A DNA stretch of 23,390 nt, taken from a virus (lineage: Duplodnaviria; Heunggongvirae; Uroviricota; Caudoviricetes). Below, in pieces: positions 9,788-12,152 of this stretch. The notes under the pieces were generated by a model. The model was not told the DNA's origin and searched no databases. It was given only the letters and a program-made list of their open reading frames with translations. Where the stretch lies: IMG/VR virus record IMGVR_UViG_2537561977_000031, positions 1 to 23,390 of that record. One strand, given 5' to 3'. The position numbers and the translations under genes are program-made. How positions within the stretch are numbered: position 1 is the first letter of the stretch; the number at the start of each line of letters is the position of its first letter.

Positions 9788-9931
9788 ATGCGAAAAACGC
9801 AGGAAAATAAACGCGTTAATCACCGAAAAGATGTGCTACGTGACCAGTTTTATCAGGGGGTTAATCCAGCAATAGCTGTGCCACTGAGAGAAATACTTAA
9901 CAGGTACAAAACTTCGGAGAAGTCAAAATGA
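9788..9931 (+). CDS. Small basic protein (47 aa), candidate
   Basis: SD GAGG 7 nt before ATG; stop overlaps the O-like start (ATGA); MRKTQENKRVNHRKDVLRDQFYQGVNPAIAVPLREILNRYKTSEKSK. Confidence 0.45.
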   Translation: MRKTQENKRVNHRKDVLRDQFYQGVNPAIAVPLREILNRYKTSEKSK

Positions 9932-10264
9932 GCATGAATCTTATGGCTAAGGCCATGAATATAAAGGTTGGCAACCCACTGAGAAAACTGGTTCTGATTA
10001 AACTTGCCGATAACGCCAATGATAATGGCGAATGCTGGCCTTCATATCAACATGTCGCTGACCAGTGTGAGGTGAGCAGATCGACAGTAAAAAGTCACAT
10101 TAGGGCACTGGAAGAGATGGGGCTTTTGAAAAGGGAATTCAGAAGAAAAGGAGAGCTTAACCAGTCAAACGTTTTTTATCTGACGCTGGATAATGCACAA
10201 CAAATCCAACCAGAATCAGGTGGGGCAGGAGCTGCCCGGGGTGGGGCAGGAGCTGCCCTAGGGG
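9928..10264 (+). pseudogene. Replication initiator O-like protein, N-terminal HTH part, interrupted by the IS110-family insertion
   Basis: HTH-type N-terminus (LVLIKLADNANDNGECWPSYQHVADQCEVSRSTVKSHIRALEEMGLL); ORF then reads through iteron-like repeats into IS sequence. Confidence 0.6.
10220..10258 (+). repeat. Two 18-bp direct repeats GTGGGGCAGGAGCTGCCC (21-bp period), each with internal dyad symmetry; a third copy lies at 11715-11731; ori iteron candidates
   Basis: Exact repeat seen at 10220-10237 and 10241-10258 inside the O-like coding frame; arrangement resembles lambda ori iterons inside gene O. Confidence 0.5.
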
Positions 10265-10290
10265 GTGCCCCTATTAAGTTGTCAAGCATG

Positions 10291-11487
10291 TTATGACCCC
10301 TGCGGGGTATAAAAAGTCCCGTCGCGCATCATGGCGAACAGAACGTCGCAGCGTCGTCTCGCCAGGGCGATAAGCGCCTGATTGTGTCGTTTTCCCTGAC
10401 TCATTTTGCGGGTGTAGTAAGCCCTGGAGAGCGGATCCCTGAGCGCGGCGAAGGCCGACAGGAACAACGCCCGTTTGAGAGCTTTATTACCCCGTCGCGA
10501 GGGATGCTCACCGCGTATTGACGAGCCGGATCGCCGAGTTACCGGCGCAAGGCCAGCATAAGCAGCGAGATGTGCGGCAGAGGCGAAGGCGCGGCAGGCG
10601 ACCTCGGTGAGGAGTCTGGCTGCGGTCCTGACACCGACTCCGGGCATACTGGTCAGGACCGGGTAAAGAGGGTGAGCAAGAACTCGCTGTTCTACCTCAA
10701 GCGCCACCTCGTCTCTTTGCTTACGCAGCGTGATGAGCTGGAGTGCCAGACGTGGCAGTACTACGGCAGCGGCATTCGTGCCGGGAACGACGACGGTTTG
10801 TTCGGCCAGTGCCTGAGCTATGTCTGCTGCAAGGCGTTTACCCAGACGAGGCGCAAGTTTGCAGAGCTGGGCTGCCAGCTTCTTCTCACCCAGCGAAGCG
10901 AGTTTTTCTGGTGAGGGATATCGCTGGAGAAGATCGAGTACCGCCGGGTGCTCAAGTCTCGGACCGAGAACGCGCTCCAGTGCCGGATGTATCTGGGTCA
11001 GAAGGCCGCGGATACGGTTGCTGGCCTGCGTTGTCTGTGCGGCAAGATCATCATCGAAGCCGCAGAGCATGGAGAGTTCGGCGATTTGCTCGTCAGCCAG
11101 TTTCAGCGTGCGTAGCGCGTGAGGCAGGGTACGGGCAGCTTCGGCAATGATGGCAGCGTCACGAGCATCAGTTTTAGCTTCACCGGCGTGTAAGTCGGCT
11201 ATGCGGCGCATGGCCAGTCCAGGGAGGTATCCGACAAGGACTCCTTCTGAGCGGGCAACGGCGACAGGTAACGCACCGATGGTAGCTGGCTGATCAACAA
11301 CCAGCAGTATCTGACCATGTTGTTTCAGGTCAGATATTAGCGACCTGAGTTTGTTTTCGTCGTTGGGTAATGCTTTATCGAACAGGCGTTTACCTGAACG
11401 ATTAATGGCAACAGCGTGATGCGTATCTTTACCGACATCAACGCCGATAAAGACCTGGACGGATTCGTAATCGCTGGATTCGGTCAT
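10291..11487 (-). CDS. IS110-family transposase/recombinase (398 aa)
   Basis: N-terminal IGVDVGKDTHHAVAI (RuvC-like DEDD) and C-terminal AYAGLAPVTRRSGSSIRGEHPSRRGNKALKRALFLSA motifs; SD AAGGGAGA before ATG. Confidence 0.9.
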   Translation of the reverse strand: MTESSDYESVQVFIGVDVGKDTHHAVAINRSGKRLFDKALPNDENKLRSLISDLKQHGQILLVVDQPATIGALPVAVARSEGVLVGYLPGLAMRRIADLHAGEAKTDARDAAIIAEAARTLPHALRTLKLADEQIAELSMLCGFDDDLAAQTTQASNRIRGLLTQIHPALERVLGPRLEHPAVLDLLQRYPSPEKLASLGEKKLAAQLCKLAPRLGKRLAADIAQALAEQTVVVPGTNAAAVVLPRLALQLITLRKQRDEVALEVEQRVLAHPLYPVLTSMPGVGVRTAARLLTEVACRAFASAAHLAAYAGLAPVTRRSGSSIRGEHPSRRGNKALKRALFLSAFAALRDPLSRAYYTRKMSQGKRHNQALIALARRRCDVLFAMMRDGTFYTPQGS

Positions 11488-11714
11488 TCTGTCTCCCTTG
11501 TATATGGGTTAACCAGATAACCACGGGGAGCAGGTACCGGCATCCACGTTACAGACGGTCCCGGCAAAAGTGCCTGACCTGACCCCTATTAGCGGTTACC
11601 AGCGCCCCACCAGACCCGGTGACATCACCCCCCGGATCATGGACGACTGGGGGCAGTAATCATGCCGGGTCTGGCTGGCTAACACCCCATTATAAGGGGT
11701 ACGAATAAAGTAAC
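11488..11714 (-). ncRNA. Candidate bridge RNA (structured noncoding 5' end of the IS110-family element)
   Basis: 227 bp between element end and transposase start; 10-bp inverted repeat CCAGACCCGG...CCGGGTCTGG enclosing internal loops; TATAAT near the element end. Confidence 0.35.
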
Positions 11715-11718
11715 GGGG

Positions 11719-12152
11719 CAGCTCCTGCCCCCAGAACCTATCACTCTTTTGAACCAGTCAATGAACCTAAAAACATTATGTTCGAACATGTCCGAACGGA
11801 GTGTGAAAAAACTCCTGACCGTCACGAAGAAACCGACAAGGCATTCGAGGAAATATTCTGGTGTGCAGGCATGCGGAAAGCCGGGAAGAAAAACGCGGCT
11901 TCGGCATTCAGAACACAGTTCAGGGAATGGCGTAAAACTACCAGGGGTACGGCAAGCGAGTTTGCCACGATGCTGGCAGACGATATTGCATGCAGGAATG
12001 GTAAGCAGTTCGGATTCGACAGGTTGTTACCATCGAGCTACCTGAAAGGTCAGCGCTGGAACGACGAAAAGCCAGAAACCATTCAACCACAATCCAGACC
12101 ATCATCCGCAATCACCGTATCGAAAACTGGCTACGTGTTTTTCGACAGGTGA
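11719..12152 (+). pseudogene. Replication initiator O-like protein, C-terminal part (conserved phage C-terminus-like), separated from its N-terminal part by the IS110-family element
   Basis: Open frame from 11709; ...FEEIFWCAGMRKAGKKNAASAFRTQF...WNDEKPE; in frame with 9928..10264 after removal of the IS. Confidence 0.55.

Follow-up and report, generated by a model that had tools for sequence, protein, structure and literature searches.

ISEc20 splits an O-like initiator gene and its iteron-like repeats in a phi24B/Eru5-type prophage, probably at an RNA-specified target

We report that the insertion sequence (IS) ISEc20 interrupts the O-like replication initiator gene of a lambdoid prophage, within a short array of iteron-like repeats, in a 23,390-nt window (the whole stretch analysed, positions 1 to 23,390 of the IMG/VR record IMGVR_UViG_2537561977_000031, Caudoviricetes). 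Taking the evidence together, we consider it probable that ISEc20 has here split the initiator gene and the origin of a phi24B/'Eru5'-type prophage at a target specified by an RNA. This same explanation makes the host a lambdoid prophage of the phi24B/'Eru5' replication type, on the ybhC/att-lambda side of an E. coli/Shigella-like chromosome. An earlier note, drawn up from the letters of the window, had proposed that an IS110-family element landed in an ori-like iteron array inside an initiator gene, and several of its claims are taken up below. The parts of the interrupted gene are as follows.

9928 to 10266, plus strand: 5' fragment of the O-like initiator gene, codons 1-113, colinear with phi24B O.
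10260 to 10266: right half of the ISEc20 target, AGGGGGT on the plus strand and ACCCCCT in IS orientation; gene sequence, though GenBank counts it in the IS.
10267 to 11714, minus strand: ISEc20 (IS110 family), 1448 bp of inserted DNA, no target duplication.
10291 to 11487, minus strand: ISEc20 recombinase/transposase, an intact open reading frame (ORF) of 398 amino acids, annotated as ISEc20 transposase in RefSeq/GenBank.
11715 to 12152, plus strand: 3' fragment of the O-like gene, codons 114-258 and the stop.

Joined, 9928-10266 and 11715-12152 give exactly 777 nt, or 258 codons, and the restored protein is identical to phi24B O at 253 of 258 residues (19 nt differences). The 777-nt gene is uninterrupted in phi24B (HM208303), Stx2a_F403/F451, Min27 and others, and about 45 IMG/VR contigs likewise have the gene in one piece; these homologs are single continuous genes with the repeats side by side, so that the possibility, raised in the earlier note, of the two flanks being separate genes falls away. 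The phi24B array reads ...GAATCA GGTGGGGCAGGAGCTGCCCGG GGTGGGGCAGGAGCTGCCCTA GGGGGTGGGGCAGGAGCTGCCCCC AGAACC... The left flank of the window matches phi24B through ...CTAGGGGGT (10266) and the right flank restarts at GGGGCAG (11715), which sets the junctions of ISEc20 exactly at 10266|10267 and 11714|11715 (here and below a bar marks a junction). The join first suggested, 10264 to 11719, does keep the frame but drops 6 nt (two codons, GG); the true join is 10266|11715. In the window as it stands, the 5' frame of O continues into the IS and meets a stop at 10296.

The earlier assignment of the inserted DNA to the IS110 family is fully supported, and the element can be named. Its 398-residue ORF gave full-length Pfam matches to PF01548 DEDD_Tnp_IS110 (6.9e-49, 1-155 of 155) and PF02371 Transposase_20 (7.1e-22, 3-86 of 87), the DEDD RuvC-like domain being N-terminal and the Tnp (Transposase_20) domain C-terminal, as in the IS110 family. 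At the DNA level it is 99.5-100% identical to ISEc20 copies, found in about 1460 of 5426 complete E. coli genomes, and equally to the GenBank/RefSeq entries (LC567818 mobile_element; WP_005032648/WP_001358663 transposases); "IS110 family ISEc20" is already the annotation of the element in several phage records. The window copy is 100% identical to a plasmid copy of E. coli FDAARGOS_944 and differs by 1 nt from the chromosomal copy of that strain at the equivalent site. The ends are GTTACTTT... and ...AATAGGGGC, without terminal inverted repeats, and the non-coding parts comprise 227 nt upstream of the recombinase (11488-11714) and 24 nt downstream (10267-10290). Set against the empty site, the inserted length is 2225-777 = 1448 bp without target duplication, whereas the GenBank mobile_element is 1459 bp long. 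The surplus 7+4 bp (AGGGGGT, GGGG) occur in the empty site; being found in the uninterrupted O gene, they are therefore conserved target and not element. A single C (G on the plus strand, 10267 and 11715) is common to the donor junction and the target.

The restored initiator would consist of an HTH_36 N-domain, a GGAGAA-type peptide region and a C-terminal domain whose presumed role is recruitment of the downstream primase-helicase. The HTH_36 winged-helix domain lies at residues 17-67 (Pfam, 1.2e-14 to 5e-14), a region with weaker Pfam matches to transcription-factor HTH families as well, and Phage_rep_O (PF04492) had no Pfam match in the protein. Both halves match PHROG replication-initiation families, and over residues 118-258 the protein shares 86% identity with the C-domain of proteins whose N-domain is Phage_rep_O. 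The name O-like initiator is thus upheld by the C-domain and the PHROG families but not by the N-domain, which is HTH_36 and not Phage_rep_O; the protein appears to be O-like by function and C-terminal domain only. A sequence search of the PDB returned only marginal HTH regulator matches (E ~0.3) and no near solved structure.

Between the two domains lie the repeats and, directly after them, a conserved element.

10219 to 10239: iteron-like repeat 1, GGTGGGGCAGGAGCTGCCCGG, with the dyad GGGGCAG-GAG-CTGCCC (Tandem Repeats Finder, TRF, and pattern search).
10240 to 10260: iteron-like repeat 2, GGTGGGGCAGGAGCTGCCCTA (TRF and pattern search).
11715 to 11731: iteron-like repeat 3, which doubles as the left half of the ISEc20 target (GGGGCAG; CTGCCCC in IS orientation).
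11733 to 11771: post-iteron element, AGAACCTATCACTCTTTTGAACCAGTCAATGAACCTAAA, conserved at the DNA level across genera.

The reconstructed gene of the window thus holds 3 units. The 17-mer GGGGCAGGAGCTGCCCC occurs at 10222-10238 and 10243-10259 on the plus strand (1 mismatch each) and exactly on the minus strand at 11715-11731; the search gave 4 matches where 0.02 were expected, and none of 100 shuffles had as many. TRF reported a 21-bp period with 100% matches over 10219-10258. The 17-mer search and TRF therefore recover the two repeats of the earlier note, with their 21-bp period and internal dyads, and also its third palindrome at 11715-11731, which has a different 3-nt centre: on the plus strand it reads GGGGCAGCTCCTGCCCC, the reverse complement of the other units, from which it differs only in that centre (GAG to CTC). 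This CTC centre (11722-11724) abuts the IS and is absent from the roughly 45 uninterrupted close homologs and from the FDAARGOS_944 copy; template switching at a hairpin and an assembly artefact are both possible sources. Centre flips also occur inside the arrays of other species, which fits a dyad site indifferent to the orientation of its centre. BLAST extensions to 11727 in many genomes gave rise to the idea that the third palindrome or its flipped centre belongs to the IS. We rejected it, as flanks beyond GGGG show only chance similarity: the ten other ISEc20 copies described below have unrelated flanks beyond a short G-rich consensus, and the repeats are not part of the element.

The comparison of arrays rests on 81 loci with HTH_36 N-domain homologs: 80 genome loci, from different species of several gammaproteobacterial genera (including Pseudomonas, Pantoea, Enterobacter, Erwinia, Photorhabdus, Providencia, Proteus, Shewanella, Vibrio and Aeromonas), and phi24B. 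Arrays were located by a post-repeat anchor, which was present in 78 of the 81, and in these 78 an array directly follows the N-domain. Four to five repeat units are found in 65/78 loci and 234 of 253 spacings measure 21-24 bp. Perfect dyads with 6-bp arms are 12-fold enriched over shuffles; within arrays the arms are conserved and the centres variable. Seen against these 78 loci, the placing of the element inside an iteron array of the initiator gene is well supported. Spacings are not multiples of three in 32/78 loci, typically as a compensating 23+22 pair, so that a single ORF contains one DNA motif in two frames; GGGGCAGGAGCTGCCC, for instance, is translated both as GGAGAA and as GQELP. 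The arms fall into the classes GGGGCA/TGCCC, GTGCA/TGCAC, TGTAGGC/AAGCAC (sometimes GCCTACA), TGCC/GGCA and GTGAA/TTCAC, and each iteron class (at least five) pairs with a distinct sequence class of the HTH recognition helix and wing.

Each located array ends at a 35-40-nt element with the consensus AGAACCAGTCACTCTTTTGAACCAGTCAATGAACC, within which GAACCAGTCA occurs twice. Third codon positions of the element are about 0.99 conserved, against 0.66 at invariant N-domain residues used as a control, and blastn found the element in 146 phage records, including those of Vibrio, Pseudomonas, Aeromonas and Aggregatibacter phages; it is probably part of the origin. Array and element accompany N-domains joined to many different C-domains. 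In 38 mosaic loci of IMG/VR a C-domain 86% identical to that of the window is joined to a Phage_rep_O N-domain (PF04492, 1.1e-37), and the equivalent position has the layout of a lambda-type ori, with different repeats (TGTCAC/GGTGAC units) followed by a block of approximately 80% AT and by a palindrome.

Taken together, the patterns of repeats and element indicate that selection acts on the DNA and not on the peptide, and fit a module of initiator plus origin. At the DNA level the middle region of the gene would offer dyad-symmetric 17-bp sites at 21-24 bp spacing and then the conserved 35-40-bp element; array and element would form the phage origin, bound by the protein's own N-domain, in analogy to ori-lambda inside O. 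It is likely, in our judgement, that the repeats are an iteron-type origin of phage replication, iteron binding and origin function being what we infer from the comparison of sequences.

Several observations weigh against an origin at this place. None of the matching records carries a rep_origin annotation, and in both Eru papers the word iteron is absent and no origin is discussed for the HTH_36 module. The pairing of iteron classes with HTH classes is confounded by phylogeny. The array of close E. coli/Salmonella homologs varies from 1 to 6 units, with a single unit in six contigs; an iteron origin seldom has such single-unit alleles, which a slippage-prone variable number tandem repeat typically shows. 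Some alleles break the dyad in all units (CTGACC). The AT-rich stretch that the earlier note saw after the third copy does exist (62% AT at 11733-11800, 51% in the whole gene), but it is a weak feature and not a lambda-like AT block, with a GC fraction of 0.38-0.42 beside the array against 0.40-0.47 in the 5' part of the gene.

The array might then be no more than a slippage-prone tandem repeat encoding a flexible Gly/Ala linker, devoid of function at the DNA level, in which the IS happened to meet G-rich sequence. Such a repeat would account for the 1-6 copies among near-identical genes and for variants homogenised across the array (GCC to GAC in all units), and it suits the low complexity of the encoded peptide, the frequent breaking of assemblies inside the array and the absence of a marked AT block. 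Yet a linker needs neither dyad symmetry, with conserved arms around a variable centre, nor a 21-24 bp spacing kept across several gammaproteobacterial genera, and one DNA motif in two frames of the same ORF would not be expected of it. Since it also leaves unexplained the synonymous-site conservation of the adjoining element and the different repeat set at the equivalent place in Phage_rep_O relatives, we regard it as unlikely.

We are more sceptical still of an arrangement in which the sites of the N-domain are operators, serving autoregulation or transcription control, with the origin elsewhere, for example near or inside the P gene. The weaker matches of the HTH_36 domain to transcription-factor families would suit such a role, no AT-rich unwinding element lies beside the array, and primase-helicases of the P4 alpha type can carry an origin-binding domain of their own. 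However, the PHROG families of both halves of the protein are those of replication initiation, the mosaic relatives put a lambda-like ori (repeats, AT block, palindrome) at exactly this position, and array and element move with N-domains across many C-domains, as expected of an initiator-origin module.

Many draft assemblies and IMG/VR contigs end within the array, without IS sequence, and odd proteins (...GVVQEIHQ..., ...PEPVTLLNQS...) arise from frameshifted reads of the array. It seems that the G+C-rich palindromic repeats break short-read assemblies. We considered such contig ends as further IS insertions and rejected this, there being no IS sequence at them and assembly breaks being more likely.

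Why ISEc20 stands where it does appears to be a separate matter, which turns on the left end of the element and its predicted guides.

11488 to 11714, minus strand: ISEc20 left end, predicted bridge RNA, holding four predicted guides.
11650 to 11656, minus strand: predicted left target guide (LTG), CUGCCCC; left-end nt 59-65 (CTGCCCC), identical to the top-strand left target.
11626 to 11633, minus strand: predicted right target guide (RTG), GGGGGGUG; left-end nt 82-89, GGGGGGTG, complement of C+ACCCCCC.
11583 to 11591, minus strand: predicted left donor guide (LDG), UAAUAGGGG; left-end nt 124-132, TAATAGGGG, identical to the IS right end.
11547 to 11552, minus strand: predicted right donor guide (RDG), GUAACG; left-end nt 163-168 (GTAACG), complement of C+GTTAC.

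Ten of ten other ISEc20 copies, in contexts as unrelated as phage tRNA and terminase regions, a penicillin acylase gene, rtcB, plasmids and intergenic DNA, read nGGGGGT|IS|GGGG(C/G), and ISEc20 is therefore strongly site-specific. In IS orientation (the minus strand of the window) this target is (C/G)(T/C)(G/C)CCCC|ACCCCC(C), and the junction of repeats 2 and 3 reads CTGCCCC|ACCCCCT. Its right half, AGGGGGT on the plus strand, is present in uninterrupted phi24B, matches the consensus of the 10 other sites and is complementary to the RTG. The guides were found by scanning the left end for identity and complementarity, that is, by sequence agreement only. In the 21.9-kb window without the IS, no other site matches the 14-nt target that they define as well as the occupied one (1 mismatch), and the runner-up is the junction of repeats 1 and 2 (2 mismatches); 0.5% of shuffles contain a site with at most 1 mismatch.

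The 5' non-coding end of ISEc20 would accordingly encode an RNA with two guide pairs, the first specifying the target CTGCCCC|ACCCCC(C) and the second the element's own circle junction, TAATAGGGGC|GTTAC, with recombination directly 3' of the C common to target and donor and without duplication; CTGCCCCACCCCCC is the predicted recombination target. The circle junction is predicted to read ...TAATAGGGGC|GTTACTTT..., and the meeting of right and left ends would form a TTGACA -35 box (read from the sequence), as in IS621. That element has two guide pairs, in a target loop followed by a donor loop, and the 5' side pairs with the bottom strand and the 3' side with the top strand (Durrant et al. 2024, PMC11208160); the order of the ISEc20 guides and their strand rule agree with this arrangement. 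The left end folds into a 5' hairpin and two stem-enclosed domains that hold the guide segments (z = -2.55). On our reading, ISEc20 would stand at the 2/3 junction because that junction matches the sequence specified by its bridge RNA, and the array would have been hit since this junction spells the programmed target, not for being an origin. The landing in the array that the earlier note described thus stands, but the array does not seem to have been chosen as such. The proposed guides predict the insertion consensus of ISEc20 and account for the choice of the 2/3 junction over its neighbour.

Other results speak against guidance by a bridge RNA, putative as it is. The minimum free energy fold pairs the C-rich LTG with the G-rich RTG instead of leaving them looped, and Rfam (E-value mode, 9800-12300) matched no family. 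Covariation of guide and target, which would speak for such guidance, comes from one truncated relative, on its left flank only and with one mismatch: in this 88%-identical relative, in E. coli RM10386 (NZ_CP028126 4147574-4149776), the LTG has changed from CUG to AUU and the RTG has changed as well, and the left flank has gone from CTGCCCC to ACTCCCC, which amounts to 2 matching changes and 1 mismatch between LTG and left target, with the RDG and the start of the left end unchanged relative to ISEc20. The alignment to an uninterrupted homolog that the earlier note had called for fixed the insertion point but gave no identical core dinucleotide: the dinucleotide 5' of the crossover is CC in the target and GC in the donor, with only the second base common, and the crossover lies 3' of this common C (target ..CCCC^A, donor ..GGGGC^G). 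Neither AC nor CA is found at both junctions, and both were rejected as a duplicated core. In IS621 the top strand is cut directly 3' of a CT core, of which the first base is the less constrained one (Hiraizumi et al., PMC11208158). A literature search on ISEc20 yielded passing mentions only, and nothing on its target or RNA.

Recognition by DNA structure has been proposed for some IS110/IS1111 elements that target repetitive extragenic palindromic (REP) or attC hairpins, and a 2026 preprint on ISPpu10 reportedly describes a sequence-plus-structure rule. That ISEc20 recognised a hairpin or cruciform of the palindromic iteron here, and not RNA-DNA pairing alone, is nevertheless highly improbable, for although a 7+3+7 palindrome adjoins the IS directly, with one of its arms as the left target half and with its centre inverted in this window only, most other ISEc20 flanks have no palindrome and share a linear consensus of about 11-14 nt, which the guide segments explain fully.

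Two further observations concern ISEc20 ends elsewhere. A 61-bp fragment identical to left-end nt 1-61 lies within prophage Rz (i-spanin) genes of several E. coli genomes (for example NZ_CP032204 2216275-2216335) and may be a solo-end remnant. In pSCU-111-1 the right end meets, instead of the usual ACCCCCC, ACGTTACT, which is similar to how ISEc20's own left end begins (GTTACT); the junction may stem from recombination with a donor-like pseudo-site or from a former tandem copy.

The interrupted gene belongs to the early-right operon of a lambdoid prophage, with the following neighbours.

8284 to 9021, minus strand: cI-like repressor (Peptidase_S24 and HTH_3).
9082 to 9327: Cro-like gene, upstream of cII.
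9466 to 9765: cII (Phage_CII), followed by the O-like ORF, which starts at 9928.
12260 to 15165, plus strand: partner 'P' gene, encoding in order a toprim primase, a Hint/LAGLIDADG intein and a helicase.

The closest public sequence is a prophage adjoining ybhC in E. coli FDAARGOS_944 (99.7% identity over 88% of the window). Its genes run int, xis, exo, bet, gam, kil, cIII, N-like fragment, cI, and on through cro, cII, the split HTH gene, ISEc20, a toprim gene, nin genes, Q and lysis genes. The antitermination (N-like) gene of this prophage is a fragment only, several other genes are partial or pseudogenes and an IS600 lies at its boundary, which indicates general decay beyond the O insertion. 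No stx gene is present in the visible part of the window prophage. In P, the intein (Hint and LAGLIDADG) is inserted beside a GxGK P-loop motif (...GHGKA|CPL...). Where phi24B and FDAARGOS_944 have a run of seven T and a single P ORF of 968 amino acids, the window has six (13967-13972), a 1-nt deletion whose frameshift splits the gene into two ORFs, 12260-13996 and 13933-15165; the deletion may be real or may be a sequencing error in the homopolymer.

ISEc20 truncates O after residue 113 and leaves the array in two parts 1.45 kb apart, two units on one side and one unit with the conserved element on the other. From the O insertion, the split array and the frameshift in P we infer that the prophage is unable to replicate autonomously. 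The O::ISEc20 junction occurs in 1 of 5426 complete E. coli genomes, that of FDAARGOS_944, and the idea of a frequent insertion hotspot in O was rejected on this count. The pseudogene of that strain (NZ_CP065613, I6H01_RS21165/21175) has the insertion point and orientation of the window; it differs in having one repeat left of the IS where the window has two, a right repeat with the usual GAG centre, and an intact P. The two insertions are almost certainly one ancestral event, and as repeat number and centre differ between the copies, the array therefore kept changing after insertion. The event as such is an everyday case of prophage decay, involving an IS and a gene that were both known before; one public genome already lists the same insertion as a pseudogene.

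Its wider interest lies in the module that it cut. We lean, with little more than even confidence, towards the view that HTH_36 'O-like' initiators carry an unannotated class of in-gene origin and that the ISEc20 target coincides with a junction in one class of these. Such origins would consist of 4-5 lineage-specific dyad iterons, conserved in DNA sequence rather than in reading frame, together with the near-invariant 35-40-bp element (AGAACCAGTCACTCTTTTGAACCAGTCAATGAACC), possibly an unwinding or helicase-loading site, and would be found in temperate phages of Escherichia, Salmonella, Pseudomonas, Vibrio, Aeromonas, Shewanella, Photorhabdus and others. The RNA-specified target would coincide with GGGGGT|GGGGCAG before the last iteron in one iteron class and, if this is true, a single programmed ISEc20 insertion would disable both initiator and origin of such phages. 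The proposal gives a testable definition of the origin for the phi24B/Eru5-type module, which is used by the Stx2 phages phi24B, Min27 and Stx2a_F403 and whose architecture recurs in similar form in many phages of other genera, and the window provides a natural and readable example of IS110-type target programming.

Of the known systems, the closest parallel to the split gene is ori-lambda within lambda O, where the stretch of the gene that codes for the linker holds four 19-bp dyad iterons, an AT-rich region and a palindrome, as in O genes of the P22 gene 18 type. In both cases dyad repeats lie inside the initiator's own gene, between a DNA-binding N-domain and a helicase-recruiting C-domain, are translated as a low-complexity linker and vary in sequence with the N-domain; the gene is downstream of cII and upstream of a helicase gene, and true Phage_rep_O relatives have the C-domain of the window. 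In contrast to lambda, the N-domain of the window is HTH_36, the repeats are G+C-rich (GGGGCAGnnnCTGCCCC), a DNA-conserved element of 35-40 bp takes the place of the approximately 80% AT block, and a gp4-like, intein-bearing primase-helicase is the partner, where lambda has P with host DnaB. The 'Eru5' module of Shiga toxin (Stx) phages (Stx2a_F403; PMC8951638) has the same order of HTH_36 protein and primase downstream of cI/cro/cII; the Eru5 paper classifies proteins only, and a term search found neither iterons nor a replication origin discussed in it (PMC8951638). As to the element, ISEc20 differs from IS621 (PMC11208160, PMC11208158) in its target, a G/C-run sequence and not a REP element, in a dinucleotide that is CC in the target and GC in the donor and not CT, and in that its guides are predicted from sequence. 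The two elements share the DEDD RuvC-like and Tnp domains, the lack of inverted repeats and of target duplication, a long 5' and a short 3' non-coding end, strong site specificity, guide pairs that are predicted to follow the same order and strand polarity, and a -35 box at the right end that would meet the left end in the circle.

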